32,000 bases of DNA from Ktedonobacterales bacterium (GTDB lineage Bacteria > Chloroflexota > Ktedonobacteria > Ktedonobacterales > JADMIN01), in contig CP126532.1 of assembly GCA_030167145.1 (NCBI GenBank), forward strand, positions 1,140,001 through 1,172,000, in the 5' to 3' direction. Each line of letters opens with the position of its first letter. Positions within the stretch are counted from its first letter, which is position 1. The notes under the pieces were generated by a model. It was not told where the DNA came from. It saw nothing but the letters and a program-made list of their open reading frames with translations, and ran no database searches. A program made the position numbers and the translations under genes. Of this stretch, positions 3,052-23,023 are shown in pieces.

Positions 3052-4218
3052 CTCCAAAAGTCGGTCGATTTTTTCGGGTTCATAACTTTCGACCGGCGTT
3101 CCCAACAACGTGTCCATTGCCTGCACGGCCGACTGCTGCATGTGCGGCAGCACGTGCGCGTAGGTGCTCAAGGTGATGGACACGTTGGAGTGGCCCAGCA
3201 TCTCACTGACCACCTTGACGTTGACCCCGCTGGCGAGCAAGAGGGTCGCCGCGGTGTGGCGCAGGTCGTGGAAGCGCGTCTCACGGCTGAGCCCGGCCTT
3301 GACCAGGTAGCGTTTGAACGACCGTTTGGTGATGTTGTGCGGAATCATGATGCCGCCGTAGCCGTTGGGGAAGACGAGGTCGAGCGTGTTGTCCCACTGA
3401 TCACCCATCGTCGCTTTATCACGCTGCTGGTGCTGCCAGTGCGCGGTCAGCGCGTCGACGGCGGCTTGGGTCAGGGCGACCGTTCGCCGGGAGTAGGCCG
3501 TTTTGGTTTCGGCGACGATGTAGCGCCCGCTCGTCTCCTGCACGTTCATCCGGACTTGGGCAATGCGCCGGGCCAGGTCGACGTCCTGCCACCGCAGCGC
3601 TAAGAGCTCGCCTTCACGCATGCCCGTGCTGAGCGCCAGTACGTACAGCGCGTAGAAGCGGTCGTCGGCCACGACGTCGAGGAAGCGCCGCACCTCAATG
3701 ACCGACAGCGGCATCATCTCGCGGTGGTCGCGCTTCGGCGGCTTCAGCATTTCCGAGACGTTGCGGCTGACGAGGCCCATCTGCAGCGCGTCGTCGAGCG
3801 CCCGATGCAGCATGCTGTGAATGGCGTGGACCGTCGTGGCGCTCAGGCCCTCCGCCAGCTTGCGGTTGTAGAAAGCCTGGAGGTGCTGGGGGCTGAGCTT
3901 GGCGAGGCTGTGCTGGCCGAGCCCCGGGACGAGGTGGTTGACGTAGTCACCGTACCGCCGGTAGCTGCTCGGCCGAATCTGCGACCGCATCGTCTCGTAC
4001 CAGCCCGTTAGATACTGCTTGACGGTCTGCCGCTCATCGACCAGCGGTACGCCCCGGCCGACGTCGTGCAACGCCTCCTGCATCTTCTTGGCGACTTCCG
4101 CCCGCGTCTTGCCGTACAACGCCTTACGCGTGCCGCCGTCGAGGGTGATCCGCGCCATCCAGCGGCCATCGCTGCGCTTGCTGATGCCGCCCTCGTTGTT
4201 GCCGCGCCTGCCGGCCAT
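3049..4218 (-). CDS. int: tyrosine recombinase / phage-type integrase (389 aa)
   Basis: ATG at 4218 is preceded by GAGGAGGTG. The N-terminus MAGRRGNNEGGISKRSDGRWMARITLDG...GKTRAEV is an AP2-like/SAM-like integrase N-terminus. The catalytic region has ...ALSTGMREGELLALRWQDVDL..., HDLRHTAATLLL (HxxR) and GHSNVSITLSTYAHV (catalytic Tyr). The track ORF start at 4395 adds 59 non-coding-looking residues. Confidence 0.9.
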   Translation of the reverse strand: MAGRRGNNEGGISKRSDGRWMARITLDGGTRKALYGKTRAEVAKKMQEALHDVGRGVPLVDERQTVKQYLTGWYETMRSQIRPSSYRRYGDYVNHLVPGLGQHSLAKLSPQHLQAFYNRKLAEGLSATTVHAIHSMLHRALDDALQMGLVSRNVSEMLKPPKRDHREMMPLSVIEVRRFLDVVADDRFYALYVLALSTGMREGELLALRWQDVDLARRIAQVRMNVQETSGRYIVAETKTAYSRRTVALTQAAVDALTAHWQHQQRDKATMGDQWDNTLDLVFPNGYGGIMIPHNITKRSFKRYLVKAGLSRETRFHDLRHTAATLLLASGVNVKVVSEMLGHSNVSITLSTYAHVLPHMQQSAVQAMDTLLGTPVESYEPEKIDRLLE

Positions 4219-4471
4219 CGGACACCTCCTCGCGAGCAGACCCCACTGGTGCCAGCGGGTCGTCGTGTGGCTCCTGCTGGAGCAACGTCGTGATGTAGTC
4301 GTTGAGCGATGCGACCACCACTCGGCGCGTGCGACCGATCTTGACGCTCTGCAGTGCCCCTTGTAGCACCAGCAGGTAGGTGGCAGTCCGGCCAATACTT
4401 AAACGACGAGCGGCCTCTTCGACTGTCACCAGCAGCGGCGGCTCGGACTCAGGATGCCTCATAGATAGCAT
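4124..4471 (-). CDS. xis: excisionase-like helix-turn-helix DNA-binding protein
   Basis: LLVTVEEAARRLSIGRTATYLLVLQGALQSVKIGRTRRVVVASLNDYI matches the MerR/excisionase-type HTH pattern and lies directly upstream of int. The start may be ATG 4471 or ATG 4462, which has better SD spacing to AAGGA. As read, the ORF runs 95 nt into int, and its tail is Arg/Gln-rich. Confidence 0.65.
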   Translation of the reverse strand: MLSMRHPESEPPLLVTVEEAARRLSIGRTATYLLVLQGALQSVKIGRTRRVVVASLNDYITTLLQQEPHDDPLAPVGSAREEVSDGRQARQQRGRHQQAQRWPLDGADHPRRRHA

Positions 4472-4514: not shown

Positions 4515-5366
4515 TCAACTATGGAGGCTCGCTAGCATGGTCGCCACGGCCTCCAACTGGGTCACCACCTGGAACAGCGCGCTCGCTGGCTCGGGTAAGT
4601 GGGCAACAATGGTCCTAACGGCATCGCGACGCTCCGGGCTCACGGTACTCACCAGTACCCGCGGCACGACCCCGTGCGGGCCGAGTTGACCACGCTGGAC
4701 AAAATCCAGGTAGACGCTCAGCTTGCGCTTGATGGTCGGTAGGCTCTCGGTCGCCAGGTCAACCTCTATCCACCAGTGGTCGCGGACCGTGCCGAGCGCC
4801 AAGCGGGTGTAGCCATCGGGCTTGACGTAGCCGCCGAGGCCGCTCGGCCACCAGCACGCCGGTTCTGCCGCGAAGCTGACGACGGACGCAGCGTGTAGAC
4901 GAGCCTGTTCAACGAGGCTGACGTACAACTCACTGACGGCCAGTGTGTGGCGAACCGTACGCTCGGTGGGGAGGCCGGGGTGTCGCACCCGCTGACGGGC
5001 CGCGTAGGCCGCTTGTCGCGTGGCGTAGAGGTGAGTGCCCGCACTGCCGAGGGCGAAGGCCGCGCCAGCGGAGCCCCGCGCCGCGCCACCGATCCGGCGC
5101 GGTGAGACGGCGAGCACCCGCCAGCGGACCAGACGGCGCAGCACCCGGCCGCGGACGACCTCGCGGGCGTGGCCGGTGAGCGACTGGAAGTACAGCCGCT
5201 CCAATTGCTGACCGGTTACCAGTCGCAGCAGGTTGACGATCTCGATGATCTGCCAATCGCGGTCGCTCAGCCGGTCCGCGAGCCAGGCGGTGTTTGGCGG
5301 GCGCAGCCGACGAGCGGACCCGGCGCGATCGGGAATGGCCATATCGGCCTGAGCTTGGGTTATCAT
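4515..5366 (-). CDS. replication-relaxation family protein (283 aa)
   Basis: Body LSDRDWQIIEIVNLLRLVTGQQLERLYF...RRLVRWRVL...HTLAVSELYVSL...PDGYTRL...WWIEVDLATES...KLSVYLDF fits my recollection of the Replic_Relax family found next to coupling ATPases in Gram-positive/actinobacterial elements. I chose ATG 5366 (GGAGA 6 nt upstream). Alternatives are 5384 and 5417. The track start at 5552 overlaps the upstream gene. Confidence 0.65.
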   Translation of the reverse strand: MITQAQADMAIPDRAGSARRLRPPNTAWLADRLSDRDWQIIEIVNLLRLVTGQQLERLYFQSLTGHAREVVRGRVLRRLVRWRVLAVSPRRIGGAARGSAGAAFALGSAGTHLYATRQAAYAARQRVRHPGLPTERTVRHTLAVSELYVSLVEQARLHAASVVSFAAEPACWWPSGLGGYVKPDGYTRLALGTVRDHWWIEVDLATESLPTIKRKLSVYLDFVQRGQLGPHGVVPRVLVSTVSPERRDAVRTIVAHLPEPASALFQVVTQLEAVATMLASLHS

Positions 5367-5496
5367 GCCTGTCTCCACGGGCATGTCGGCGGCACGTACG
5401 ACCGCTCGACAGCCCATACCAAGGGGTGAAGGGTTCGTGCGAGTCGCACAGCGACCACACCACCGACGACACCAGCAAGCACAACACGCAGCTGGC

Positions 5497-7800
5497 TCAT
5501 CCCCGACCTCGCGTTCCCTCACGGCCGAAGCGATCACCGGCCGCCGTACCACCGACCGTCACGCGGGCGCGCAGCCCCGCCTCGATGGCTGAGCGCGCCA
5601 TACCATGCCGTTCACGACTGGCGGCCGCCAAGGCGGCAGCGTCCTGCAGCGGTGATCCCAACGGCAAGGTGGTGCCGGTCACCGGGGGCAGCGTCTGGCC
5701 CTCGACGCACGGCTTCATGGCGAACTCGAAGGCGTTGAGGCTCGCCAGATCATCGCGCGTCAGCGGCGCAAAGCGGTCGGCGAGCACCCGCGCGTCGTCC
5801 CACTCCAGTTGAAAGGCAACGTGGGTGCGCACCGTGCCGAGCGTGGCGTCGCGTACGGCGCTGGGGAGCTGGTTCAGGTACTGGTGGGCCAGCGTCAAGG
5901 ACAGACCCAGGCCGCGGGCCTGCGCCAGCATATCGGCCAGGTTGTCGTTGGCCCCGAGGCGAACGATGTCTTGAAACTCATCGAGGTAGGCGAAGACCGG
6001 GTGTCGATGCCAGGCCGGCAGCGCCACACGGGCCTGAGTGGTTTGCCACATCGTCGCCACGAACAGCGAGCCGAGCAGGTTGGCTGCTTCGCTGCCGATC
6101 TTGCCCTTGGCCAGCGAGATGAGCAGCACACCGCGCCGGCTAAAGCGCTGGCTGAGTGTCACGCCTTGGCTTTGGCCGAGCAGCAGGCGAATGGAAGAGC
6201 GCATCGAGAAGGCGCGCAGCTTGTTGAGTACCGGTCCAATGGCCTCCACCCTCGCGGCCTCGCTGAGGTTGCCATCGAACCACTGCCAGAACGAGCGCAC
6301 CGACGACGGCAGGTCGGGGTGCTGGCTGACGTAGCGGCGCAGCGCCGGGTTGGTGAGCAGCTCTGGCACTTCCATCAGGGTAAAGACCGAGCCATCCGGC
6401 GCCCGGGTATGGGTCAGGCTAAACAGCGCCGCCCGCAGAATTTCGTCGGTCCGTGGTCCCCAGAAGTCCTCGTAGATGGAGTGAAAGACGTTGAGGACGT
6501 GGTCGGCCATCAGCTCCCGGCTGGCCTCGTCGTCGAACGCCGAGCGCAGCGGGTTGAAGCCGACGATCGAGTCCTGTATCGTGCTGGGGTCGAGCACCAC
6601 TACGTCCGGGCTACGCTCCGGCGGGATGCGCGCGGCGATGTCGCTCACCAGGTCGCCCTTGGGGTCGATCACCACCACGCCGTGGCCGGCGGCGATGTCC
6701 TGCAGAACCATGTGAGCCAGCAGCGTCGACTTACCGCTGCCGGTCGGACCGATCAGGTGGACGTGGCGCAGGCGGTCACTGGGGGCAAGCGCGAGTGGCC
6801 GGTCGGTCAGGCCGGGGTAATTGCAGCGTCCCACGACGTTGCCGGTGGTTGGCACCATCGGCAGGGGCGGCAGTTGGCGGGCCTGGCTTGGCGCGAGGCC
6901 GGGCAAGGCAGTGGCGAAGGGGAAGGCCACCAGCCCGACTGCCTCACGGACGTTGAGCAGCAGCGGCCAGCGCAGTAGCGGGTAGCGGCGGCTACGCAAC
7001 CAGGCCGCGACGATAGCCGCAGGCAGCAGCCGGCGCACGACTTGGACGCCGGGCGCGTTCAGCCCCTGCATGAGGCTCCAGGCCCGCTCGCCGAGTGCAT
7101 TGGCCCGCGGCCGGGTGGGGGCGCTCACGCCAATGCGGAGCGTCGTGGCCAGCAGTGGCTCGCGCTGTTTCGTCCGCTGGGCGTGAATGGCGTCAGCGTC
7201 GGCCGGTACGTCACGCTCCAGCCACCACGGCACGGCCAGGTTCCGCGTCGCCGCGTCGCTGGTCGCCGCCGGGGGTGTCCCGGCGCTGGTCAGAATGAGC
7301 TGGATGATGACGCGCTCGTCGGCGGCGAGCGGTTGCAGGGTGGCGAGCACGTCGGTGCTGACGGCCCCAGCCCGCTCAACCGCCAGGGGACGGATGTGAC
7401 TCGTCAAGGTGAGCTCATCGGCGAGCAAGGGCGTCTCCCGCGCACTGATGGACGGCGGCACCGCGTCAAGGCGGGCACCGGGCAGTTGGGCGCGCACCGT
7501 GGCGAGGAGCGTGTCACGGGCGGCCGGCGTCACCAGCACGTAGTGGCTGATGCCGGCGTGGTCGGCGACGACTTCGAGGGCGACCGGCGGAAGCGGCAGC
7601 AGCGACCAGCGCGGCGGATGGGTGGCCGCGGCCAACGCGCTCAGCCAGCGCACGGCGTCGTCCACCGTCAGCTCACGCGGCAGCTGGAGCCGGAAGGCTA
7701 CGAGCGACTGGCGCCAGGCGTGCATATCGACAGCCCGCGCCGCGAGCACGATAGCCAAGGGCAGCAGGCTCACTACGAGCAGCAGGAGAGCGATGGTCAT
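5497..7800 (-). CDS. type IV secretion coupling-protein-like ATPase (TraD/VirD4-type), N-terminal TM anchor
   Basis: ATG 7800 is preceded by AAGGA. N-terminal TM MTIALLLLVVSLLPLAIVLAA. Walker A LIGPTGSGKSTL, Walker B-like VFAYLDEFQDIV, and LTLAHQYLNQL. Its start overlaps the stop of the upstream small ORF (ATGA). Confidence 0.8.
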   Translation of the reverse strand: MTIALLLLVVSLLPLAIVLAARAVDMHAWRQSLVAFRLQLPRELTVDDAVRWLSALAAATHPPRWSLLPLPPVALEVVADHAGISHYVLVTPAARDTLLATVRAQLPGARLDAVPPSISARETPLLADELTLTSHIRPLAVERAGAVSTDVLATLQPLAADERVIIQLILTSAGTPPAATSDAATRNLAVPWWLERDVPADADAIHAQRTKQREPLLATTLRIGVSAPTRPRANALGERAWSLMQGLNAPGVQVVRRLLPAAIVAAWLRSRRYPLLRWPLLLNVREAVGLVAFPFATALPGLAPSQARQLPPLPMVPTTGNVVGRCNYPGLTDRPLALAPSDRLRHVHLIGPTGSGKSTLLAHMVLQDIAAGHGVVVIDPKGDLVSDIAARIPPERSPDVVVLDPSTIQDSIVGFNPLRSAFDDEASRELMADHVLNVFHSIYEDFWGPRTDEILRAALFSLTHTRAPDGSVFTLMEVPELLTNPALRRYVSQHPDLPSSVRSFWQWFDGNLSEAARVEAIGPVLNKLRAFSMRSSIRLLLGQSQGVTLSQRFSRRGVLLISLAKGKIGSEAANLLGSLFVATMWQTTQARVALPAWHRHPVFAYLDEFQDIVRLGANDNLADMLAQARGLGLSLTLAHQYLNQLPSAVRDATLGTVRTHVAFQLEWDDARVLADRFAPLTRDDLASLNAFEFAMKPCVEGQTLPPVTGTTLPLGSPLQDAAALAAASRERHGMARSAIEAGLRARVTVGGTAAGDRFGREGTRGRG

Positions 7801-7961
7801 GATTGATCCTTGGTTGGCGGTTGGGATTCGGCGTGCGTGGCCTCCCGTTGCCTGCGCTCCTCGTGGAGCACGTAGGCGAAGGCGATCAGCAGCTGCTGCC
7901 ACGGCTCAGCGTCGAATGGCCGTTGTTTGGCGATGATGAGTACGCGGCGGTGTCTCGGCAT
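7797..7961 (-). CDS. small hypothetical protein (54 aa) translationally coupled to the coupling ATPase
   Basis: ATG 7961 has a strong AAGGAGG SD. Its stop TGA overlaps the ATG of the next gene. Product MPRHRRVLIIAKQRPFDAEPWQQLLIAFAYVLHEERRQ... Confidence 0.5.
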   Translation of the reverse strand: MPRHRRVLIIAKQRPFDAEPWQQLLIAFAYVLHEERRQREATHAESQPPTKDQS

Positions 7962-10709: not shown

Positions 10710-11555
10710 ATGGAAGCAGACAATAAACTCAACTGGCAGCAGCTGATCGACGAGGCACTGACCGCGCCGGGGCACTTGGGATCGGTCTACAACCGCTTTC
10801 ACGACTACAGCCTGACCAACATGTTCCTGTTCATGATCCAGGGCGTGCGCGAGCCGGTGGCGTCCTTTTCACGGTGGAAGTCGCTCGGCCGACATGTCAT
10901 CCGTGGGGCGCGGGCGAAAGAAGTCATCGTCCCCATTATGATAAATGAGCCGAATACTGCGAAATCCGCCGAATTTGGCGGAAATACGGCTGACACTGAC
11001 AGCACCGACGAACAAAAAGGGCGCGTGGCGCGGCTGGTTGGCTTCAAAGTGGTGCGGGCGGTTTTTGCCTTATCCGACACGGATGGCCCAGACCTGCCGC
11101 CGATCCACCTGCCGACATGGGATGTCGCCACCGCGCTCACCAACCTGCACATCCGGCAAACGCCGTTCGAGAACCTAAACGGCAATGTCCAGGGATATTC
11201 GCGCGGCCGCGAGATTGCCATTAATCCCGTCGCTGTCCATCCCGCCAAGACGCTCATGCACGAGGTCGGCCACGTCGTCCTCGGGCACACCATCGCCACG
11301 CGCTTCGGCGAGTACGCGACCCACCGCGGCATCATGGAGTTTCAAGCCGAGGCCACCGCCTACCTGGCGATGAACGAGCTGGGCCAACTCGATACGGCAA
11401 CCGCCAGCCAGAGCCGCGGCTACATTCGGCACTGGCTCCGCGACGAACGACCGGGCGACCGGGAAATCCGGTTGGTCTTTAGCGCTACTGATCAGATACT
11501 GCGTGCGGGCCGGGTAGCGGTCGGCGCGACGGTTCGTGCTGACGCTCCGACGTAA
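10710..11555 (+). CDS. ardC: ArdC-like antirestriction protein (ssDNA-binding N-domain plus HExxH metalloprotease C-domain)
   Basis: N-terminal FHDYSLTNMFLFMIQ...FSRWKSLGRHVIRGARAKEVIVP matches the ArdC-N/DUF1738 signature as I recall it. The C-terminus has TLMHEVGHVVLGH (HExxH) and EFQAEATAYLAMNELG. Confidence 0.75.
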   Translation: MEADNKLNWQQLIDEALTAPGHLGSVYNRFHDYSLTNMFLFMIQGVREPVASFSRWKSLGRHVIRGARAKEVIVPIMINEPNTAKSAEFGGNTADTDSTDEQKGRVARLVGFKVVRAVFALSDTDGPDLPPIHLPTWDVATALTNLHIRQTPFENLNGNVQGYSRGREIAINPVAVHPAKTLMHEVGHVVLGHTIATRFGEYATHRGIMEFQAEATAYLAMNELGQLDTATASQSRGYIRHWLRDERPGDREIRLVFSATDQILRAGRVAVGATVRADAPT

Positions 11556-11688: not shown

Positions 11689-12717
11689 CTATCTGAGTCG
11701 TTTCAGGCCGTCGTATCTTGTGTCATTGAACAGAGTCGGCTGTTCGAACGGTAACCCCGACATCTCGCTTGATATATCAACCTCGCTTGCTCCGGGCGTG
11801 TTGATACGGTCGTACACCGCATTGGCTTCCGATTCCTGGACAAAGCGTAGTGCTGAAGCGGCCAGATAGCTCTGGTCCAAATCGAACGCGAGCCACTGGC
11901 GATGAAGTCCCTCAGCCACCGCGCCGGTAGTGTTGGAGCCAGCGAAGATATCGAGGACCAGATCGCCCTCATCAGTCAGGAACTTGATGAAGAACTCCGG
12001 CAATTTGGCTGGGAAGCGCGCCGGGTGCCCGGTCGCACCGACGAGCTTGCAGAACCGTAGGTACTGCGAATTGCTTTCAGTATTGGGGATTTGCAGCAGG
12101 TTCGATGGGATCGCCCCACCATTGTCTTTATTGAAGCCTTCGCTAATGTCGTGGCCCGACGGGCGAAGTGCTGGTTCATAGTACCGCGTTTTATTGCTGA
12201 GCAATTTCGCCATGCGCGCTGAGTAGGGCACGAGCACATTGGAGACGTTGGCTTTGGGCGCGGAAGTCTTAGTGAACCACCAGAGGGTATTGACCGAGTC
12301 CTTGGCGCGAATCTTACGCTTATTGACCCACTCGATCGGCGAGGGCAGTTTCGACGAGTTATACCAGAAGAACTCCTCAGCCAGGTACCACCCCAGCTCG
12401 TCGCACATCCTCACCAGGACGCGATACTGATAAATCGATCGCACCGGTAGGCCGCTCTGGTACGCCCCACCTAAATCAAGCACAAAGCTTCCCGTCGGCT
12501 TCAAGATGCGCTTAATCTCTGGCGTGAACGACAGCAGCCAGTTGACGTATGTCGCTTGGTCTTCGTTCCCGTACGCTTTCTGGCGTTGCAGCGCAAATGG
12601 TGGCGACGTCATGACCAGATCGACTGATTCATCTGGTAGCTCGCGCATGAGATCATTAGCATCGCCACAAAAGGCCTGGCCCTGGCGTGTGGTGTAAAGT
12701 GGCTTCCGCTGCATCAC
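11689..12717 (-). CDS. beta-class DNA methyltransferase (motif IV SPPF before motif I; N4-cytosine or N6-adenine)
   Basis: VDLVMTSPPFAL (catalytic motif IV) lies near the N-terminus and DLVLDIFAGSNTTG (FxGxG SAM motif I) near the C-terminus, plus HPARFP. SPPF is typical of m4C enzymes such as the M.PvuII group. The start is GTG 12717 or ATG 12714, and either overlaps the stop of the upstream gene. Confidence 0.85.
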   Translation of the reverse strand: MMQRKPLYTTRQGQAFCGDANDLMRELPDESVDLVMTSPPFALQRQKAYGNEDQATYVNWLLSFTPEIKRILKPTGSFVLDLGGAYQSGLPVRSIYQYRVLVRMCDELGWYLAEEFFWYNSSKLPSPIEWVNKRKIRAKDSVNTLWWFTKTSAPKANVSNVLVPYSARMAKLLSNKTRYYEPALRPSGHDISEGFNKDNGGAIPSNLLQIPNTESNSQYLRFCKLVGATGHPARFPAKLPEFFIKFLTDEGDLVLDIFAGSNTTGAVAEGLHRQWLAFDLDQSYLAASALRFVQESEANAVYDRINTPGASEVDISSEMSGLPFEQPTLFNDTRYDGLKRLR

Positions 12718-14171
12718 CCGTACACCTCCAAGCCATAGACCCAGCTGGATACAATCTTCCAGAGTACCGTTGTCGCGAAATAGACCTCAAGGTCTTGGGC
12801 CTTGAGTGCCTCAAGCTCGCTGATGAATTCTTGGCTGTCACGCATGCCGAGGATATATGAAATCCACTGGCGTGCATCCTCGTCGGTGCGCGCAGTGAGC
12901 AACTCACTTATATTGAACTGCCCACTCTTGCTCAATGCCCAGGCAATGCCCGGTCGTAGCGTTGCGGAGGCGGACCCGAAGCGGTCGATGAGGTTGCCAG
13001 AGTATGCGGGTGCGAATCGCGCGAGCGCGCGTGCTGCTTCGACCCGAATGACGTCGGCAAGCTCGCCAAAAGCATTCACCAGCGACTCGATGCTAGATGG
13101 GTCGCCCAGTTCGCCGAGTGACCAGGCGGCACCAGCCCGCACCTCAGCATGTTGTGTGGGGTCGCTGAGGACGGCCTGCAGCAGGGTAATTGACGATGGC
13201 TTGTCGAGTTCAGCGAGGATGATTACCGCTTCCAGTCGGTGCTGCGGGTAGTCATCTTGCAGGCGCTGCCGGATGAAATCCCAACCTTCGGCGCGGTCAG
13301 CCCGCGCCAAGGTTGCCGCCGCTTCCATACGCACGTAAATATGCTCATCGGAGTCCTTGAGTCGATCAGTTAGGGCCGCCAATATTGGTTCGCTTGTCGG
13401 CAGGAAGCGCAGCGCTTTCGCGGCGGCGTAGCGCTCGCTGACCGATGCGCTCCGCAAGCGCCGCAGGAAATGCTCCTCGGCTGCGATCGGTGCACAGGAG
13501 AACGACGGGTGGGGCGTCACTACGGAGGCGATGATTTGATCCTCTACCACTTGCTCGCCGGCCTTTACGCTGGGCTTGACCCCTGGGCTGCGCCACCGAT
13601 AGGATACCGTTCGGTTATCGGCGGTTCGCCTGATGCGAATCGAGGAAGCATCAACTGCTAACACTATTCCGGCTGCGGCCGCAATTGTGGAAGGCCAGAT
13701 CAGTCGGCTTTCGAAGCCTTCTTGCGCACCTTTCGGCGTCGTACTCTTTACCAGTCCTGCCCTGAACGCCGTATCCATCTCGCCGACCTGGATATAGGAG
13801 ACGTTCTGATCTGCCTCCCAATCGATGGGCGCCTCGCCACGCTTATGGACGCCAACAAGGGCAACATAGTCTTGGTCGTACAGCCCGCTATTCCAAGCTC
13901 GCTCCGCATCCGCTAGGGAATGTGACATGGAGACCTCGAACTTGGTTTTGCCCCGTGACTCAACTCGCGTCCCGCACCGTATGCAGAGAATATCCGGCAC
14001 CCTAATACGCTTGATCTTGATTTCACGCCAGATTTTGAAGCTCCGAGAACCGCGCTCCAGCTCAATTGGCTGGTGACCCGCGTCGGTCAGATCAGCGAAT
14101 ACACGCTGGGTGCCGATGGCACCAATCGAGAGCTTTTCCAGAAAACTGGTGTCGGTCTTAAACGCAGGCAT
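12714..14171 (-). CDS. unusual 485-aa protein: N-terminal nuclease-like module, beta-rich middle, C-terminal HEAT (PBS-lyase-type) repeats; candidate partner of the methyltransferase
   Basis: aa 243-445 contain 5-6 repeats of about 31 aa, for example YVRMEAAATLARAD, VRAGAAWSLGELGDPSSIESLVNAF and IRVEAARALARFAP. The N-terminus has IELERG...RVPD(60)ILCIRCGTRVE(71)SRGK(75)TK, which resembles a PD-(D/E)xK layout but not strictly. Its stop overlaps the MTase start. Confidence 0.7.
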   Translation of the reverse strand: MPAFKTDTSFLEKLSIGAIGTQRVFADLTDAGHQPIELERGSRSFKIWREIKIKRIRVPDILCIRCGTRVESRGKTKFEVSMSHSLADAERAWNSGLYDQDYVALVGVHKRGEAPIDWEADQNVSYIQVGEMDTAFRAGLVKSTTPKGAQEGFESRLIWPSTIAAAAGIVLAVDASSIRIRRTADNRTVSYRWRSPGVKPSVKAGEQVVEDQIIASVVTPHPSFSCAPIAAEEHFLRRLRSASVSERYAAAKALRFLPTSEPILAALTDRLKDSDEHIYVRMEAAATLARADRAEGWDFIRQRLQDDYPQHRLEAVIILAELDKPSSITLLQAVLSDPTQHAEVRAGAAWSLGELGDPSSIESLVNAFGELADVIRVEAARALARFAPAYSGNLIDRFGSASATLRPGIAWALSKSGQFNISELLTARTDEDARQWISYILGMRDSQEFISELEALKAQDLEVYFATTVLWKIVSSWVYGLEVYG

Positions 14172-14311
14172 GTGGCTGTTATCCTACAAACAACGGCAAT
14201 GCGCCAAAACTAGCTCGTACGTATTCTAACGAATGGGGCATGTAAACCAGCGCGTTTTAGCCCAGGCAGGGTGGGCAGTGAACACATCAACTGTCAACTG
14301 TCACCACGTAG

Positions 14312-14395
14312 CCAGACGAGTTCGTGGCGCCGGTCCACAACCGCATGCCGGTTATGCGGCTGCCCGAGGATGAAGAACTCTGGTTTGACCCGGAT
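14312..14395 (+). pseudogene. relic of the 3' part of an SOS-response-associated peptidase (SRAP/YedK-like) gene
   Basis: In-frame translation PDEFVAPVHNRMPVMRLPEDEELWFDPD resembles the conserved SRAP C-terminal block (..IH.RMPVIL......WLDP). A stop lies immediately upstream (TAG 14309-14311) and no N-terminal catalytic part is present. Confidence 0.45.
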
Positions 14396-14433
14396 TGGCA
14401 CGTAAGAGCGGTGGTAGCCTTTAACCGTACCTG

Positions 14434-15594
14434 TCACTCGTCAACATCGTCTAGATCGCCCAGACCCTCAGCGCTTACGTCCGGGACTTGCTCTCGTTTT
14501 CTGTGTAGCATGGTCGGCGGTTTTACGGCATCCGGACGCACCGGTCTAGCCCGTGCTCCACTGGTAGGCAGTACCGGCTTTAGTGCCCGCTTGGAGCTCA
14601 CCTCGTAGTCAACGTAGGTCATGGGTGAGTTCAAGTAGTCGTCACTGAGCAGGCGCAAGAACTGGGTTTTGTAAGCCGTCGCATACACGAGCATCTCCTT
14701 GCCGTCGCGCTTCGTAATTTCGACGGACAAGCCACGGCGATCGATCGCCCGTCTGATGCGGGCCATCGATAGCTGCTGTACGTGGGGCAACTCGGCGAGA
14801 TCAGCGAGCTTCATTGCCATGCGCGGATCGCGTTTGCAGGCGGCCAGAAATTCGTCGAGGTTGGCGATGGGAATACGGTCTTGCAAGCTGTAGGCAACGG
14901 CTTTTGCTTCCTCTTGGACATACTCGTAGAAGCGGAATATGCGCTGGAACTTGTCCCGGTTCAGGATGAACATGTCGTCGCCCCGGCAGAGGCAGTCAAT
15001 TTGATAATCAAAGACGAACCCTGGCTCGGGCACCTCATCGTAGTAGCCGGGTTTATGGCCGCGCAACGTGGCGACCCAGCGGGTTCGGTGTAGTTGGAAA
15101 CTGTCAGTAAAGAAACGGAATGCGTGGAGGATTGGGTCGGTCGGACTATCTGCTCGCCGCAGCGAGACGACGTAGTAACGCAGTCCCGCTAGGAACTCCT
15201 TGCGTTCACGGAACGGCTCGAGATCCCAAGGGGCGGCCAGCGGCGCAATTTGGTCAGCGACGCGGTCGCCATTGGACAGCGCCAAGTGCTCCAGAACATC
15301 TTCGCTGGCACCGATACCGCCCTGATAGTCTTCGACCACGCCACCATCTTCCAGCCGGTCGAGGAGGTCGTCGAGCGTATCAGCCACTATCGTGCGAAAG
15401 CGCTGCGCCAGCGCCGGTTCTACCTGCAACTGCCGATAGGTGGTCTTGGCCGCGTCTTTCCGGGTTGACTCTTTGATAGAGGCGAAGTTTACCGTGACGC
15501 TGGCGGTCGCTAGATCGATGGCCGCAAACTCTTTGAGCAGGTTGTAATACTTCGTCTCTGGGACGAATAACCGCAGTTGTCTACTGACCATCAT
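14434..15594 (-). CDS. kwaB: KwaB-like protein (DUF4868) of a Kiwa-type defence pair
   Basis: 386 aa. Segments FVFDYQIDCLCRGDDMFILNRDKFQRIFRF and KTQFLRLLSDDYLNSPMTYVDY match my recollection of the KwaB/DUF4868 conserved blocks. Its start ATGATG overlaps the stop of the upstream 4-TM gene. The Pro/Arg-rich, acidic C-terminal tail of about 55 aa is extra. Confidence 0.65.
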   Translation of the reverse strand: MMVSRQLRLFVPETKYYNLLKEFAAIDLATASVTVNFASIKESTRKDAAKTTYRQLQVEPALAQRFRTIVADTLDDLLDRLEDGGVVEDYQGGIGASEDVLEHLALSNGDRVADQIAPLAAPWDLEPFRERKEFLAGLRYYVVSLRRADSPTDPILHAFRFFTDSFQLHRTRWVATLRGHKPGYYDEVPEPGFVFDYQIDCLCRGDDMFILNRDKFQRIFRFYEYVQEEAKAVAYSLQDRIPIANLDEFLAACKRDPRMAMKLADLAELPHVQQLSMARIRRAIDRRGLSVEITKRDGKEMLVYATAYKTQFLRLLSDDYLNSPMTYVDYEVSSKRALKPVLPTSGARARPVRPDAVKPPTMLHRKREQVPDVSAEGLGDLDDVDE

Positions 15595-16103
15595 ACACTC
15601 TCGATCCAGAGGTCGTGATCCATGCGCGCGACCTTCACGACATCATTCCGGGCGATCTCGGCCTTAGTAATGAGGTGCTGCGTTCGCCCGTTCTCGAATG
15701 TGACCTCATAGACGTGGTATCCGAGGCAGCGGAGCGTCGGGTTTATGTGCAGCATGTCGGTGCTGACGTACAAGTACGCCAAGACGAGGAAGAAGATGAC
15801 GAGCGCGACATCCTGCCTCACGTCGCGCAAGGTGAAGCCCACAAACGGAATAAGATAGGCTGCTACGTAGCCCATCACCTCGTCGCCGCGCCTGCGGTAG
15901 TCAACGACGGTCCTCGTCGCCGGTTCTACGTCGGTTTTTGCGGTATGGAGGAACCACAGCAGTCCACTGACTCCGAGCAGCAATACAGCCGCCGCGACGA
16001 TTGCCACGACGCTGTCTCTACCAGCGTAGAGTACTAAGAAGATCAGGGCAAGCGGCGCGTACGAGCTACAGAACATGACGGCGCGAGCGAAGTTGTTGAG
16101 CAT
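15591..16103 (-). CDS. kwaA: KwaA-like four-TM membrane protein
   Basis: ATG 16103 is preceded by AGGAG. Four hydrophobic helices: AVMFCSSYAPLALIFLVLY, VVAIVAAAVLLLGVSGLLWFL, VMGYVAAYLIPFVGF and VALVIFFLVLAYLYV. These are followed by a soluble tail of about 60 aa. The call rests on gene order (membrane gene then DUF4868) and the 4-nt overlap. The track start at 16277 adds a non-coding-looking leader. Confidence 0.6.
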   Translation of the reverse strand: MLNNFARAVMFCSSYAPLALIFLVLYAGRDSVVAIVAAAVLLLGVSGLLWFLHTAKTDVEPATRTVVDYRRRGDEVMGYVAAYLIPFVGFTLRDVRQDVALVIFFLVLAYLYVSTDMLHINPTLRCLGYHVYEVTFENGRTQHLITKAEIARNDVVKVARMDHDLWIESV

Positions 16104-16271
16104 GTGCCCGGCTGACTCCTGTGAGCGGTGATCCCTAGTCGCAATGGTAGCTACGACTTGCGACGGGCTTCTGGTACGTACGGCCACACCGCGAGGCGCC
16201 GTATAGGAAATCCATCCCCCTGAGCAATCGGCGACGCTGACCAACGGGCTAGTGAGGTGATCCACTCCGGC

Positions 16272-16300
16272 TGTCAACGATGCGGCTCGCCTAGTATAAT
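16272..16300 (+). promoter_or_regulatory. candidate sigma-70-type promoter of the large gene
   Basis: TGTCAA (16272-16277), a 17-nt spacer, then a perfect TATAAT (16295-16300), about 58 nt upstream of ATG 16358, in the divergent region shared with kwaA. Confidence 0.45.
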
Positions 16301-16357: not shown

Positions 16358-19300
16358 ATGATGGCTCGACCAGGTCTTATTGACCGCCAAGGCCTACTCG
16401 ATTGGGCCAAGCTCCGTGTCGCGGAAAGCGAACTGCCTCGACTCATCCGTCGGCTTATTCTGGAAACGGGTCGCGGTATCGCCTATCTCGGGTTTCCCGC
16501 CGGGGAGGGCGTGGCCGCGAGCAGTTGGGACGGGACCGTTCGCGCAACTGAGGAGGCACTATACATACCGCTAGGTCTTTCGCTGTGGGAGGTGTCGGTT
16601 AACGGCAGCCCTGGCGCTAAGGCCAATGATGATTACCAGAAGCGCACGACGACACCGGATGGCTCGCCCACGAGCGACTGCGCGTACGTTGAGGTCATAT
16701 TGCGCCCGTGGACGCAACGCTTTGATTGGGCGCGTGATCGGACCGCCGAGGGCAGGTGGAAAAAGGTGACTGCACTCGGGGTGGACGACGTGGAGACGTG
16801 GCTCGAGTTCGCGCCAATCACACACGCGTGGCTATCCGAGTTGAATGGGTTACATCCCTATGGTTTGGTGACGGCGCAGACCTGGTGGAATACATGGTCA
16901 GCGGCGACGACGCCGGCGTTTCCGAGCGCGGTAGTGGTCGCCGGGCGGGACGAGGCTATCACGAAGCTCCGACAGGCGCTGGGCGAGCCGGGCCAGGTCG
17001 TTACCGTCCGGGGCACGAGTCGTGATGAGGTGGCGGCTTTCGTGGCCGCAGTCGTGTTAGCTGAGGAAGCTGCTGATGGCGGCGCCCTGCTCGCGCGGAC
17101 CGCCTTTATCGACAACGTCGAGACGTGGCGTCGCTTGCGTGGCCACCAAACACCCCTGGTCCTGGTCGCCTTGACAGAGCAAGTGGCCGCTGAGTTTGTA
17201 CCTAGTTCTCCCCATGTCCTCATCGTGCCGCGAACGGGGACAGCAAGTGCGGACATTGAGCTGCGACCCATTGATGCGCAGGTGGCCACAGAGATTTTGA
17301 AAGGCGCGGGTCTCGCGGAACGCCAAGCGGTGGAAGCCGGCCAACTCGCGCGTCTCAGTCTTCTGGCGGCGCGGCGACGACTGGCGAATAAGCGGGAGCT
17401 CCTTCAACCAGCCTGGGCTGAGTCGCCCGCTGGCAAGACGATACGCCGCCTCGCGCTCGTCGGACGCTGGAATGAGGACTCCGACGCGGACCGTGCTCTC
17501 GTCGGGCAAGTGGCCGGTATCTTGTACGACACGCTGCGCGAGGAAATCGCCAAGCTCTCTGCGGGCGGCGACCCACTGTTGGCGCGGGTCGGCGGCACCA
17601 TCGGTGTCGTATCGCCAATTGACGCGTGGCTGCTGCTCTTCGGCGAGCTGCGGCAGGACGACCTCGTAGCCGTTCACGATGCTGCCCGAACAGTCTTAGC
17701 GGAAATCGATCCGCGTCTAGACCTGCCGCGAGATGATCGTTGGCTGGCGCGGGTGCGCGGTAAGACCCGAGCGTACTCGGACAATCTCCGACAGGGGTTG
17801 GCCACGACGCTCGCCCTACTCGGCGCATATGGCGCTCGCCCAATTGGGGGCACCGCCAGCGTAGGCCGCGACTGGGCAGCGCGGATTGTTCGCGAGACGC
17901 TGGCAGCCGCGAACGCGGACGCAGCGTGCCGCTTGTGGGTGTCACTCGCCGACGTACTACCGCTGCTAGCAGAGGCCGCGCCCGAAGCGTTTCTCGACGC
18001 CGTGGCGACAGGCGCGTGTGGGCAAGCGCCCGTGCTCAGCGGGATATTTGAGGATGTGGCAGACAGTGGGCATCCGCTGGGGCCAAGCTCGGCGCACAGC
18101 TATTTGCTCTGGGCGCTCGAAAGGTGCGCTTGGTCGCCGGATCACATTGGCCGGGTGGGTGACGCACTGGCCCGGCTTGCGGAGATTGACCGGGGCGGTC
18201 GTCTGAGCAATCGTCCCTTTGCCTGTCTCCACTCGCTCTTCCGCCCATGGTATCCGCAGACCGCCGTGTCTGCTGAACGGCGGCTCGCCGTGATTGATGG
18301 CTTACGAGACCGTCACCCGGCAATCGCCTGGAAGTTACTGATGTCGCTGCTGCCCGAGCCGGGTGGCGCGGCGGTGGATACCAGTGAGCCGCAATTCCGT
18401 GATTGGAAACCGGAACAGATTATGGTATCGGCGGCCGAATACTGGACCGCTATCGGTGAAATCTGGACGCGGCTCCTCGCAGACGCCGGCCACGATCCCG
18501 ACCGCTGGGTAGCGCTGATCGAGAAGATTGATGACCTGCCGCCACCAAACCGGGGTGCGGCACTCGCACGCCTTGACGCACTAAGTGGTGACGGTGACTT
18601 ATCCGAAGAACAACGCACAGCCACCTGGAGAGCGCTGCGTGCCGAGGCGGCAAAACACCGTGAGTACGCGACGGTGTCGTGGGCGTTACCCGCCGACGAG
18701 GTGTCGGCGATGGAGGCAACAGCCACGCGGTTCGCGCCGACCAGCTCTGACGAGCGACATCGCTGGCTGTTTGAGCAGCAGTCACCGATGATCTCCACCA
18801 TTAGGCAGACTGACGACTTCGCGGCGTACGACGCCGAACTCATGAAGCTGCGCGCCACCGCTGCAGCCGAGATTGCAGACACATCGGACTGGTCCGGTCT
18901 CCAGCGCTTTGCTACGTCACTGGAGCACTCGTGGCTTGTCGGCGAGGCGGTGGCGCGGGCCCGACGCTACGAGCACGAGAGCGAAGTCCTGACACTGCTT
19001 GGGTCCGTCGAGCACCGTGAGGCGGTCTTCGCCGCCGGCTATGTCTCGGTGCGCTTCCAGACGGACGGATGGGAGTGGCTCGAGTCCTACCTCAACGATG
19101 GCACACTTTCACCCAATCAGGTAGCCCGACTCCTTTTGTATACTGATGACTATCCGAAGGCGTGGCAGGTCGCCGAAACAATGGGCGAGCCAATCGCCGC
19201 CCTCTTCTGGCAACAGTTTCGGACGCACGGCCACGATCCGGGCTTCGCGCACGTGGACTTTGTGGCCGAGCGACTGCTCGACGTCAATCGGCCGGGCGCC

Positions 19301-20184
19301 GCGCTCGACCTGATCTTGATCTATTCGGACCGTGGGAAGGTCATGAGCCAAGCACGCGCCAAACTCGTGGCACGCGGTCTCGAAGCCTTGCTCGACCGCG
19401 ACGCTCAGGAGGCGGACCTCGGATACCTATCGCACGATACCATCGTCGAACTCTTTAGTGCTCTGGAGCGCTCCGAATTGTCACGAGAGCGCCTAGCGCG
19501 GCTCGAATGGGCGTACCTGCCGTCCCTTAACTATGATGGCCGGCCCGCGACGCTGACTGCGATGCTGCCGCGTGACCCTGATTTCTTTGTGGACATCATT
19601 CGACGTATCTTCAAGCCGAGTGGCAGTGAGGATACAGATGAGCCTGAGCCTGTAGATGAAGCTCAAGACAAAGCACAGCGGGAGGCGATCACGCAGAACG
19701 CGTACCGCCTGTTGATGGAGTGGAAGAACATTCCCGGTCAGTGCGATGACGGGACGGTGGACGCTGCGGCGCTCGATGCATGGGTAACGCGGACGCGCGT
19801 GCCAAGCTCCGGGAGTCTGGCCACCTCGAGATTGGCGACTCGCGCATCGGCCACGTACTGGCCTGGGGCCCAGCGGATGCGGACGGGTCCCGTCCGTGCC
19901 TCGCGGTATGCAATCTACTGGAGAAGCTCGAGAGCACCGGCAACCTTGAACATGGCTTGATGATTGAGCTGCGCAATAGTCGTGGCGTGACAACCCGCGA
20001 GCCATTGGAGGGCGGCGACCAAGAACGCGCGCTCGCCGCCACGTACTTCAAGCAGGCTGAGGCGTTTGCTGATCGCTGGCCGAAGACCGCCGCGCTCCTG
20101 CGCAAAGTTGGTGAGAGCTACGAGCAAGAAGCGCGGTTCATGGACGAAGAGGCCGAGCGTCGTCGTACAGGCCTCGATAGTTAG
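16358..20184 (+). pseudogene. large orphan protein (about 1,275 aa if repaired), interrupted by a -1 frameshift near 19784-19790
   Basis: Track ORF 16358..19960 turns into Arg/Ser-rich junk after ...DAAALDAWV. ORF 19780..20184 in the -1 frame continues with well-behaved sequence: NADARAKLRESGHLEIGDSRIGHVLAWGPADADG...GGDQERALAATYFKQAEAFADRWPKTAALLRKVGESYEQEARFMDEEAERRR. Re-reading A19786 (GTA-AAC) joins the two frames. The body is long, helical and Leu/Ala-rich. No GxxxxGK[ST] motif was spotted. Confidence 0.6.
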
Positions 20185-20216: not shown

Positions 20217-20930
20217 TCAGCCAACACTACACGAGCCGGTACCGCCCATCTGCACTACCTGCCACGTGCCGTCGTTTGCTGCCACCAGCGTAAACGTGCG
20301 GGTGCCGGTGTCGGCAACCGTGTCGGGTGCGGCGAGCGTAGCGACCTCGTAGGCAATACACACTGTAAGCTGATTGTCGCTCTGACTTTGGATCTGCACG
20401 GCCGTAGCGTCGAGCAGCACGTAGCTGCCAGCGAACGGGCCCTGTTGATCGTAGTAGGCTTTCGCCAGCGCCACGATCCCGTCGGTGGGTGGTGGCGAGA
20501 CTGTTGGCACGGGCGTGGCGGTGGGCACGTCGGTGGGCGTCGGCGTCGGCAGCGGTGTATCAGTCGGAATGGGCGGTGCGGCGGTCGCCGTGGCGGTTGC
20601 GTACTGGGCCGCGGGCGGCTGGGGTGCGGCGCTTCCGGCAAAGGGCTGCGCCCGGATCGCCAGGTACATGACGAGGGCACCCACCATAACGCCAATCCAG
20701 AACACGACGCGGCTAGGCAGCGCCGCGCCCTGTCGCCACAGCTGCGGCTGACTAGGGAGCGGCCTGAGCCGCGGTGCGGGTTGACCGATTGGCTCCATCC
20801 CGTCATCGAGCGGCGTATCGCGCGCCCGCCGCAGCATCTCTTCGAGGCTGGGGTCAGACGCGCGACGCCGGGGCTCAGGCGGGAAGTAAGGATGGCTGTC
20901 CACGCGCGAGCTCCAACTGGGGTGGCCCAT
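20217..20930 (-). CDS. membrane-anchored protein with a Pro/Thr-rich linker and a small C-terminal domain (237 aa)
   Basis: TM VVFWIGVMVGALVMYLAI, linker PIPTDTPLPTPTPTDVPTATPVPTVSPPPT, and C-terminal domain ...QLTVCIAYEVATLAAPDTVADTGTRTFTLVAANDGTWQVVQMGG. Its start is 3 nt after the upstream stop. Confidence 0.6.
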   Translation of the reverse strand: MGHPSWSSRVDSHPYFPPEPRRRASDPSLEEMLRRARDTPLDDGMEPIGQPAPRLRPLPSQPQLWRQGAALPSRVVFWIGVMVGALVMYLAIRAQPFAGSAAPQPPAAQYATATATAAPPIPTDTPLPTPTPTDVPTATPVPTVSPPPTDGIVALAKAYYDQQGPFAGSYVLLDATAVQIQSQSDNQLTVCIAYEVATLAAPDTVADTGTRTFTLVAANDGTWQVVQMGGTGSCSVG

Positions 20931-20933
20931 GGC

Positions 20934-21482
20934 CTAGTGGAACCATTTGCCGATCAGCACCCACAGGCCGCGACCGGGGGCGGTCGGAATGACGCCGACG
21001 ACGATGGGGTCACGGAGCGGCGCCAGACGGTCGGTCCAGCTGCTGGGCCGGGCCTCGGTTGTCTCGGGCAGGGGCCGCATCTTCGGTCGCAGGGGTTGCT
21101 CCTCACCCCAGAGCCAATAGAAGAAGGGGACGTTGGCCCCTTCCAGGGCCCGCCAGCGGTTGAAGACGACGGCCGGCACGTCCCGTTCGGCGGTACCGAA
21201 GGGCGCCAGCTCCCACTCTATGCCATCGAGGGTCAGGCGCACCGGCGTGGTCGGGACGTCCCGGATGCCGAGGACCGTAGCGCCGTGGTCCTCACAGATC
21301 GGTCGCCAGTGCTGCTCAACCGCGGCCTCGTTACACGGGTCGGTGTATTCGTAGGTGTCTCGCTCCGGCAAGACGGCCAGGCCATATGGGGACGCGCGCC
21401 GGGCGATGCTGCTGGCAAGGTGCTCGTCCATACTTGTTTCTTCTCGCTTCCTATCGCTGTGCACAACTACATCGTTGGTCAT
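20934..21482 (-). CDS. hypothetical protein (182 aa, or 165 aa from ATG 21431)
   Basis: The ORF is contiguous with the downstream membrane protein gene. No family recognised and the start is uncertain. Confidence 0.5.
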   Translation of the reverse strand: MTNDVVVHSDRKREETSMDEHLASSIARRASPYGLAVLPERDTYEYTDPCNEAAVEQHWRPICEDHGATVLGIRDVPTTPVRLTLDGIEWELAPFGTAERDVPAVVFNRWRALEGANVPFFYWLWGEEQPLRPKMRPLPETTEARPSSWTDRLAPLRDPIVVGVIPTAPGRGLWVLIGKWFH

Positions 21483-21804
21483 CTGGGGTCTGGTGCCGCG
21501 CTACCTCCCTTCGTGACTGCTCAGTACCCGGCATCAGCGTCGCCGGGGCGCTAGGTGGAGCATGCCATAGCGGCGGCGAGAAACGAAGCGAGACATTAGC
21601 GGAAATTGGAGAAGAGATTGGCATGCCGGTCTGTCGGACCCGCACGGTATGCCAATCGGGGCTGCCAAGCGTGGGGACGCAAAGCCGCAAATCCAGCTAC
21701 ATGGTTTGCCACTTTCGCTGCCAGCGCAAGAAGCGGGCGGTGCGTGGTGGTTGCCGGCCTCTCGGCCTTGCTGTATGCTGAGACTGTAAACAAGGAAGCT
21801 GTTT

Positions 21805-22599: not shown

Positions 22600-22628
22600 G
22601 CGACAGCAGGCGTTGTAAGTGGTACAAT
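22600..22628 (+). promoter_or_regulatory. candidate promoter with an extended -10 (TGgTACAAT)
   Basis: GCGACA (22600-22605), a 17-nt spacer, then TACAAT (22623-22628) preceded by TGG. This would give a leader of about 390 nt before the CHAP gene start. Confidence 0.35.
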
Positions 22629-23023
22629 ACCAAGTGACCCCCTTCTACGCGAGCAAGAAGCCGCCACGCGTGGTCAGGGAAGGGGCCCGCGCTCCTATCC
22701 TGACGTCAACTGCTGCCGGCTCCAGCCTGCGCGCGCCACCAGACGAAGGGGCACTAGCTGCGGGAGGCGGTGGACCACACGGTCGCTCGTCGTTCTTCGA
22801 GTGCATGCGGAAACCTGGAGGGAGGACGTCTCTCGACCGGTGCACGTCTACTCGCCCTGATGATCCCCACTCACCACAACCCGCTAAGGTAGTGGGCAGT
22901 CCATCGGGCTATCAATCAGCCACCCTCGGTACTACGGGAGCTCGGGGCAGACGCAATCTGCCCTGGCCCGCGCGGGCCGATCAGTCGATGGCGTCGAGCC
23001 ACAGCGAAGGTGAAGGTGTATGC

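Follow-up and report, generated by a model that had tools for sequence, protein, structure and literature searches.

A HEAT-repeat protein family as the probable restriction endonuclease of PvuII-type (CAGCTG) cassettes in bacteria and archaea

Two overlapping minus-strand genes in a 32,000-nucleotide (nt) stretch of a Ktedonobacterales genome (assembly GCA_030167145.1, contig CP126532.1, positions 1,140,001 to 1,172,000; hereafter the window) encode a HEAT-repeat protein of 485 amino acids (aa) and a DNA methyltransferase (MTase). This two-gene module is probably an orthodox Type II restriction-modification (R-M) system of PvuII specificity, with an endonuclease drawn from a new multidomain family, and the sequence evidence makes the HEAT protein itself a likely restriction endonuclease for CAGCTG. 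Within the PvuII cassette, the family apparently represents a non-orthologous replacement of R.PvuII. A first-pass annotation, made from the letters of the window alone, had put forward the module as an R-M-like pair in which the partner of the MTase resembles no known restriction enzyme, and this proposal has held. Its suggestion of a new defence logic has not, given that the avoidance of CAGCTG and the place of the HEAT gene behind controller (C) genes are the behaviour of an orthodox Type II system of PvuII specificity, and the pair is not a new defence principle. The genes and the features of their junction are the following:

12714..14171, minus strand: gene of the HEAT-repeat protein, the candidate restriction endonuclease (open reading frame (ORF), 485 aa)
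11689..12717, minus strand: MTase gene (ORF, 342 aa)
12712..12717, minus strand: GTGATG stop/start overlap (TGA stop 12716-12714, GTG 12717-12715, ATG 12714-12712)
12725..12729, minus strand: Shine-Dalgarno-like GGAGG in the final codons of the HEAT gene, 7-10 nt ahead of the MTase start
12742..12747: CAGCTG site within the module, ~25 nt ahead of the MTase start

The junction of the HEAT gene with the MTase gene reads GGGTGATGCAG on the minus strand (wider context GGAGGTGTACGGGTGATGCAG), and agrees, together with the ORF coordinates, with the stop-to-start overlap at 12712-17 described in the first-pass annotation. This overlap predicts the translational coupling of the MTase gene to the HEAT gene, and, by analogy with the homologues, the start of the MTase is likely to be the ATG at 12714. 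In 86 homologous loci, the junctions are mostly overlaps of 1 or 4 nt or gaps of 1-13 nt, and the conserved C-terminal codons ...LEEY* (...GAG GAA TAC TGA) contain a Shine-Dalgarno-like GAGGA in most cases. At the other end of the HEAT gene, the 262-nt upstream spacer (14172-14433) includes, at ~14297-14312, the direct repeat GACAGTTGACAGTTGA, with two overlapping TTGACA hexamers, which could be a promoter or an operator; a sigma-70 promoter scan of this spacer, which is uninformative for this phylum, found none on the coding strand.

The MTase is a beta-class N4/N6 enzyme with an SPPF motif (aa 38-41, 12595-12606), as had already been read from the sequence, and carries FAGSNTTG at aa 258-265 (11923-11946), the FxGxG motif also being intact. 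More precisely, it can be classed as an orthologue of M.PvuII, of the N4-cytosine type, from its match to the structure of that enzyme (PDB 1BOO; E=2.4e-128 across aa 4-305). The PADLOC search of both proteins that the first-pass annotation had envisaged placed the MTase, which matches the model MTase_II PDLC03323 from end to end (E=1e-149), and gave no restriction-endonuclease model for the HEAT protein. The identity of the window MTase is 60-62% to canonical M.PvuII-type MTases, and 59-89% to those found in the other HEAT loci. The canonical and HEAT-linked M.PvuII-like MTases are 56-68% identical, which is no wider than the distance between HEAT-linked clades, and the M.PvuII-like MTases are thus best grouped as a single set of orthologues. 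M.PvuII methylates the inner cytosine of CAGCTG, giving N4-methylcytosine (m4C).

The association of the two genes was followed through a census of 169 loci, comprising 89 main-clade loci (6 identified by looking up the exact protein, 80 found on scanning a single genome for each species, and 3 belonging to the window subclade) and 80 metagenomic loci from divergent clades, whose HEAT proteins are ~30% identical to that of the window. An M.PvuII-type MTase lies directly downstream of the HEAT gene in 87 of the 89 main-clade loci, and in the two exceptions the contigs end 49 and 138 nt past the HEAT gene. An adjacent MTase was also found in 73 of the 80 divergent loci, which are distributed as follows:

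33 loci: M.PvuII-like MTase, in three different arrangements
40 loci: unrelated ~600-aa N6_N4 MTase with a permuted motif order, always divergent, ~340 nt upstream
7 loci: no adjacent MTase found, six being cut by contig ends and one (L107) having a partial MTase match

The ~600-aa MTase (for example, L105:2304-4133(-)) corresponds to the PADLOC model MTase_II PDLC03312, and is also PglXI-like; in all 40 loci the MTase gene diverges from a C gene that precedes the HEAT gene (M<->C-HEAT). The linkage on which the first-pass annotation had staked its proposal is therefore well in excess of chance and effectively obligate, and this near-constant adjacency, maintained while both the MTase and its orientation vary, indicates that the HEAT family behaves like a restriction-endonuclease family. 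Premature stops are present in three HEAT genes (L025 of Chloroflexus sp. MS-G, L032, and L052, with one or two each), which retain intact MTases, and in none of the 87 main-clade MTases, an asymmetry which, small as the numbers are, has the direction to be expected if the HEAT protein were toxic where methylation is lacking.

At least 197 species genomes, bacterial and archaeal, carry the family, which is distributed patchily over ~20 phyla; its cultured carriers include Thermosulfurimonas dismutans S95, Synechococcus sp. H60.4, and Ca. Velamenicoccus archaeovorus LiM. More than 1500 clusters were listed, of which the best 120 are full-length proteins of 485-490 aa, ~50% identical, and the sources include Chloroflexota, Bacillota, Nitrospirota, Planctomycetota, Verrucomicrobiota, Cyanobacteria, Bacteroidota, methanogens, ANME archaea, and Thermococci. 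An exhaustive phmmer search with the first 230 aa yielded, after clustering at 50%, 345 representatives. Nearly all of these share one design of ~485-530 aa or are fragments of such proteins, and essentially no other architecture for the N-terminal domain appeared among them. No match was obtained in annotated plasmid and phage records, and the family occurs in 2 of 2.9 million viral contigs. The surroundings of the main-clade loci are otherwise unrelated, and often contain integrases, resolvases, toxin genes, or other R-M or defence genes.

It might be argued that the adjacency is incidental, with an orphan or regulatory methylase lying beside an unrelated housekeeping HEAT scaffold, a view that the public annotation, which is merely "HEAT repeat protein", and the lack of site avoidance in the window would favor. 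This is effectively refuted by the census, and its probability is close to nil, given the linkage in every assessable locus except L107, across ~20 phyla, three arrangements, and two MTase families, together with the conserved stop/start coupling, the C-protein operon, and the strong avoidance of CAGCTG considered below. Individual loci also present some peculiarities. In L069, the HEAT and MTase genes are ~330 nt apart, and the C-terminus of the HEAT protein differs. An extra C-5 cytosine MTase gene is found downstream of the HEAT gene in L108 (L108:6643-7929 (+)), as well as in L109 and L153, while a 1418-aa AAA_11/AAA_12 helicase-like ORF is located downstream in L105 and L125.

The avoidance of CAGCTG was expressed as the ratio of observed to expected counts (O/E), using a maximal-order Markov model for each locus, with subsequent pooling:

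Main clade, 876 kb: 44 observed, 214 expected, O/E 0.21
Flanks of the main clade, without the module genes: 31 observed, 161 expected, O/E 0.20
Divergent clade with the M.PvuII-like MTase: 21 observed, 68 expected, O/E 0.31
Divergent clade, loci with the 600-aa MTase: 33 observed, 101 expected, O/E 0.33
Canonical R.PvuII loci, ~47 kb, positive control: 3 observed, 16 expected, O/E 0.21
E. coli K-12, 100 kb, negative control without a PvuII system: 45 observed, 55 expected, O/E 0.81
Window, 32 kb: 17 observed, 17.6 expected, O/E 0.97

By depletion, CAGCTG heads the 64 palindromes of 6 bp in the main clade (palindrome median O/E 0.81), where the 23 palindromes of identical base composition lie at 0.51-0.92. 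In the flanks of this clade, every other of the 4096 hexamers has a higher ratio, and the one-mismatch variants of CAGCTG are enriched 1.2-1.4-fold. CAGCTG is also the lowest hexamer in the divergent sets, among those with at least 25 expected counts, and, when palindromes with at least 10 expected counts are considered, it ranks second in the loci with the M.PvuII-like MTase and first in those with the 600-aa MTase. The contigs of KwaB homologues were too few at long length to serve as a negative control, and E. coli K-12 was used instead, in which CAGCTG ranks 32nd of 53, at the palindrome median. The O/E is 0.21, 0.24, and 0.33 where R.PvuII is absent nearby, and 0.32 where it is present. 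The homologous modules, when pooled, contain 7 CAGCTG sites versus 47.7 expected, and the site within the window module is thus unusual.

Avoidance of this type was reported to arise almost exclusively from orthodox Type II systems, and to be much rarer for systems that have been acquired recently or are borne on plasmids (Rusinov et al. 2015, PMC4687349). The target apparently remains CAGCTG despite the swap of the MTase family, and the specificity is therefore tied to the HEAT protein. As CAGCTG is the most avoided hexamer in the loci with the 600-aa MTase, this enzyme probably shares the specificity of M.PvuII, despite its unrelated architecture.

The cassette layout points in the same direction. 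In 64 of the 80 divergent loci, the HEAT gene is closely preceded, on the same strand, by an ORF of 68-100 aa, the end of which lies no more than 60 nt from the HEAT start in 61 loci, often exactly at the start. The best PDB matches of these small ORFs are C.BclI and C.AhdI (E ~1e-19), as well as C.Esp1396I, described as an "R-M controller protein", and they share 54-63% identity with the C genes in the canonical PvuII loci fetched as controls, which identifies them, at the level of homology, as genuine R-M controller proteins. The canonical loci have the layout M<->C-R.PvuII, and the divergent HEAT loci M<->C-HEAT, and the HEAT gene therefore fills the endonuclease slot of a PvuII-type cassette. 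The window module and the main clade have no adjacent C gene (the sole match in 89 loci, L082, lies ~500 nt upstream), and the window clade appears to use the coupling of the HEAT gene to the MTase gene in place of it. Among the canonical loci, L170-L179 carry the PvuII cassette on a Pseudomonas-type integrative element, beside GmrSD_N and AAA_15/AAA_21 genes, in a form that is near-identical across at least 10 assemblies.

The HEAT protein was modelled with AlphaFold, using an alignment of 51 sequences, as a single body (pLDDT 91, pTM 0.85) in which three domains and two conserved segments can be distinguished:

13737..14171, minus strand: N-terminal alpha/beta core, the putative catalytic and recognition domain (aa 1-145)
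13488..13736, minus strand: beta-rich middle domain (aa 146-228), modelled as all-beta at ~150-220, with an invariant K147-G..E151-G..E154..W159 loop
12717..13487, minus strand: HEAT (PBS-lyase type) solenoid (aa 229-485), with 16 helices at aa 232-474
13947..13997, minus strand: P59-D60...E71-S-R73-G-K75 motif, PD-(D/E)xK-like, across a predicted beta-hairpin
13917..13928, minus strand: M82-S83-H84-S85, a conserved strand end in which S83 is invariant

The beta-rich middle and the repeats had both been anticipated in the first-pass annotation, and Pfam detects the latter as HEAT_2 (E=5e-20, 72 bits, cut-off 27.7) and HEAT_PBS (E=3e-9, 36.8 bits, cut-off 20.9), confined to aa ~240-445. The best fold matches of the solenoid are the alphaRep, CpcE/F, and PP2A-A structures. 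In the N-terminal half (aa 1-240), by contrast with the repeats, no match was found in Pfam, NCBIfam, the PADLOC restriction-endonuclease models, or the PDB sequences. A Foldseek structure search of the core gave no nuclease-fold match, while a profile hidden Markov model of the core against the PDB sequences, and a Pfam scan of each member to E 10, returned noise only. The Foldseek matches in the PDB are to RNA polymerase beta (65-85 columns, E ~6e-4), and would belong to the beta-rich middle domain.

Most of the invariant residues fall within the core, where the predicted elements are helices at 7-30 and 129-137, and strands at 35-37, 61-63, 69-75, 80-84, 102-110, and 118-128. With the window protein as the reference, K5, F10, G17, W48, K54, R57, D60, E71, K75, S83, R91, W93, D101, E154, and W159 are invariant in 48 sequences that are 27-51% identical to it, and position 73 is always R or K (R in the main clade). 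The first-pass annotation had pointed to a "loose" PD...E.R.K arrangement at D60, E71, and K75; the residues are confirmed, while the looseness is not, given their invariance across this range of identity, and the D60...E71...K75 motif is intact in 168 of the 169 loci. D60 lies directly ahead of strand 61-63, and E71, R/K73, and K75 lie within strand 69-75, with a tight turn connecting the two, while a helix and a strand bearing E37 and E39 precede this hairpin. Some divergent members carry the exact PD...E-x-K spelling, and H84, which is invariant in the main clade, is D in the divergent clades of the alignment. In the model, the layout of D60, E71, R/K73, and K75 corresponds to the PD-(D/E)xK signature, in which the conserved residues stand where strand 2 of the core sheet begins and inside strand 3.

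Two further readings of these residues were discarded. The spacing of D60-E71xR73-S83H84S85 relative to D58-E68xK70-H83H84H85 of R.PvuII, the sequence of which was checked against the PDB, had raised the idea of a distant homology, which was dropped when hhalign, run with the core profile against R.PvuII and a 27-sequence PvuII alignment, returned a probability of 0.2-0.3%. The binding of Zn by C63/C66 is unlikely, because the divergent clades have S or T in place of C66.

Given this, a mechanism can be proposed in which the basic N-terminal core (aa 1-145) would be a nuclease of the PD-(D/E)xK type, with D60, E71, R/K73, and K75 on the beta-hairpin binding Mg2+ and cleaving unmethylated CAGCTG. 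The m4C methylation by the partner would block this cleavage, so that unmethylated DNA entering the cell would be cut, and the beta-rich middle domain, which is also basic, probably contributes to holding the DNA. The weakest step concerns the acidic HEAT solenoid of 250 aa, which is modelled as packing rigidly on the core, and for which dimerisation or the control of activity seems likelier than the reading of DNA. The first-pass annotation had imagined a HEAT-guided nuclease, and nothing indicates such guiding: the net charge of the solenoid is -10 in the window protein (family mean -9.3), in contrast with +4.5 for the core and +3.5 for the beta-domain (family means).

A number of observations weigh against the identification of the HEAT protein as a CAGCTG endonuclease. 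The 32-kb window itself has no CAGCTG avoidance, and one CAGCTG lies inside the module. The missing avoidance is probably due to recent acquisition on a mobile element; a changed specificity in the window subclade was rejected, given the depletion of CAGCTG in the sister loci L007 and L087-L089 (7 observed, 21 expected). The avoidance elsewhere comes from flanks of 5-20 kb, which may travel with the module, and was judged against a negative control of a single species and a positive control of ~47 kb. In addition, the per-locus sign test is unspecific, with palindromes overall having a median O/E of ~0.8, and avoidance can persist as the trace of a lost system (PMC4687349). Finally, in 14 of the 169 loci the MTase has an R.PvuII homologue beside it as well as the HEAT protein, and a second enzyme of identical specificity seems redundant in these cases:

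L114, L156, L091, L099, L101, L104, L111, L124, L127, L132, L133, L136, L150, L167: loci with both enzymes, 12 having a near full-length R.PvuII

In L150, only a 34-aa remnant of R.PvuII is left, and in L167 a 35%-identical R.PvuII-like ORF lies beside the 600-aa type of MTase. The order is M<->C-R.PvuII-HEAT in L156, and HEAT->M-><-R.PvuII in nine loci. The PADLOC REase_II models match the R.PvuII homologue of L111, and none of the HEAT proteins. These loci can be understood as the expected intermediates of a displacement, because a new CAGCTG endonuclease would settle only where a CAGCTG methylase already provides protection, and they may also leave scope for a non-redundant role of the HEAT protein.

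The same loci would suit an accessory, non-cutting part in PvuII-type systems, in which the HEAT protein, in the role of regulator, scaffold, or sensor, would have the MTase or a separate endonuclease as its target, as would the large acidic solenoid, a typical scaffold for protein-protein interactions, and the failure of Foldseek to find a nuclease fold. Such a part is nevertheless unlikely, given that R.PvuII was not found within 5-6 kb in 155 of the 169 loci, where the avoidance of CAGCTG is equal or stronger, and that the HEAT gene directly follows the C gene, which is the place of the endonuclease in C-controlled systems. The invariant D...E-x-(R/K)-x-K set is located in the core, outside the solenoid, and the asymmetry of decay (R lost in three cases, M in none), which on these small numbers may point to toxicity without the MTase, also argues against it.

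The HEAT protein may, alternatively, be a nuclease effector with some other trigger or target, such as a nicking or processive enzyme, an abortive-infection toxin that the MTase restrains, or an enzyme that the HEAT domain would gate upon sensing a phage factor, the sensing of a phage protein having also been the alternative put forward in the first-pass annotation. The retention of R.PvuII in ~8% of the loci suggests a non-redundant role of this kind, and the conserved solenoid, packed rigidly on the core, is without a Type II precedent in the literature search; to our knowledge, no HEAT-type solenoid has any such precedent in Type II enzymes. The company of several defence genes in the window (Kiwa, SMODS, and an AAA_21 ATPase), which make it a multi-defence island, is also in keeping with this possibility. 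It is improbable, all the same, as the target apparently stays at CAGCTG under the MTase swap, as expected of a sequence-specific restriction enzyme, no further conserved partner gene is present in the loci examined, and avoidance of the orthodox type implies a routine threat to self DNA at CAGCTG.

The acidic solenoid may also act as a gate or protector, which would make the HEAT protein a second-layer restriction effector, beyond a simple PvuII isoschizomer. This proposal is doubtful, although it would explain both the ~8% of loci that keep the canonical R.PvuII and the main clade without a controller gene. A gating solenoid might sense or resist phage anti-restriction proteins, or, standing in for a C protein, might set the time of activation once the system has entered a new host.

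The reading of the HEAT protein as the endonuclease of a PvuII-type system is also to be set in its genomic context, which is that of a defence or mobile island. The gene content identifies the window, in outline, as an integrative mobile element, with an integrase, a relaxase, and several defence genes:

3049-4395, minus strand: tyrosine integrase
4515-5552, minus strand: Replic_Relax relaxase
5497-7902, minus strand: ATPase resembling the coupling protein of type IV secretion systems
10710-11555, plus strand: ArdC-N/zincin-like protein, directly downstream of the MTase
14434..15594, minus strand: KwaB, of the Kiwa pair
15591..16277, minus strand: KwaA, of the Kiwa pair, matched by its models only from aa ~59
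22619-24451: CHAP-domain protein (hydrolase)
25264-26874: AAA_21/SMC_N ATPase
29882-30841, minus strand: SMODS (CBASS-type) nucleotidyltransferase

The GC content is 0.56-0.60 across ~11.5-16.5 kb and 0.61-0.71 to either side, so that the AT-rich block beside the Kiwa-like pair, as originally described, is confirmed, and the module, which shares this lower-GC block with Kiwa, was probably acquired recently. As the KwaA models match only from aa ~59, KwaA probably begins further downstream than the TTG at 16277. The window KwaB has only 8 matches in 5.8 billion proteins. A plus-strand ORF of 1200 aa (16358-19960), which diverges from the Kiwa pair at the edge of the lower-GC block, has no match in Pfam, PADLOC, or NCBIfam, and three other long ORFs (20388-21554, 26913-28061, and 28169-29176) are without a family match.

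If confirmed, the HEAT proteins would constitute a family of restriction endonucleases with an architecture unreported for Type II, in which a nuclease core, a beta-sandwich-like domain, and a HEAT solenoid are combined, and which is widespread in uncultured bacteria and archaea. They would also provide a natural case of the displacement of an endonuclease within a conserved cassette (the same M, C, and target), in which apparent intermediates with two endonucleases survive, as well as a possible source of thermostable CAGCTG cutters, from organisms of hot springs and vents. This raises the questions of the job of a solenoid in a restriction enzyme, and of how an operon without a controller, in which R precedes M, is established safely in a new host.

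The family lies outside the Pfam RE_* families, the PADLOC REase_II models, and the detectable solved structures, while a "putative" entry in REBASE may exist, and a full-text literature search found no paper joining HEAT repeat with restriction endonuclease and REBASE. In the annotated sources, the proteins are named only "HEAT repeat" or "hypothetical", and the catalogues of R-M and defence systems miss the family because it is annotated everywhere only as a HEAT repeat protein. Its weak matches to the PADLOC model HEAT-ARM_XIII (E=2e-9, 33 bits, positions 772-961 of 1972) and to DRT UG22 (E=7e-7, ~50 of 476 profile positions) are both restricted to the HEAT region, and represent similarity at the level of the repeats rather than membership. 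The C-terminal half is similar in both sequence and fold to the PBS-lyase-type HEAT proteins, such as alphaRep, CpcE/F, YibA, and PP2A-A; these are stand-alone scaffolds or lyases, however, and none has the N-terminal core of the HEAT family or a link to a methyltransferase.

The Type IIP enzymes of the PD-(D/E)xK type share with the HEAT protein a P-D...E-x-(R/K) arrangement on a predicted hairpin that follows a helix-strand unit, a conserved acid upstream, and an inferred palindromic target. The HEAT protein differs in having no fold or profile match to them, in the R at the canonical lysine position in the main clade, with an extra invariant K two residues further on, and in the addition of a beta-sandwich-like domain and a 250-aa HEAT solenoid. 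The operons of C.AhdI, C.BclI, and C.Esp1396I resemble the divergent HEAT loci, which likewise have a C gene abutting the effector gene and a divergent MTase, whereas the window module has no C gene.

The closest relative is the PvuII system of Proteus (M.PvuII, C.PvuII, and R.PvuII). The endonuclease of that system has 157 aa, in contrast with the 485 aa and three domains of the HEAT protein, which has no match to PF09225, and 40 of the HEAT loci use the different MTase of ~600 aa. The window clade differs further in the lack of a C gene and in the order of R followed by M, with an overlapping stop and start. The MTase is orthologous, however, the inferred target is the same CAGCTG, which is equally avoided, and in the divergent clades a homologous C protein (54-63% identity) is found within the same M<->C-R layout.

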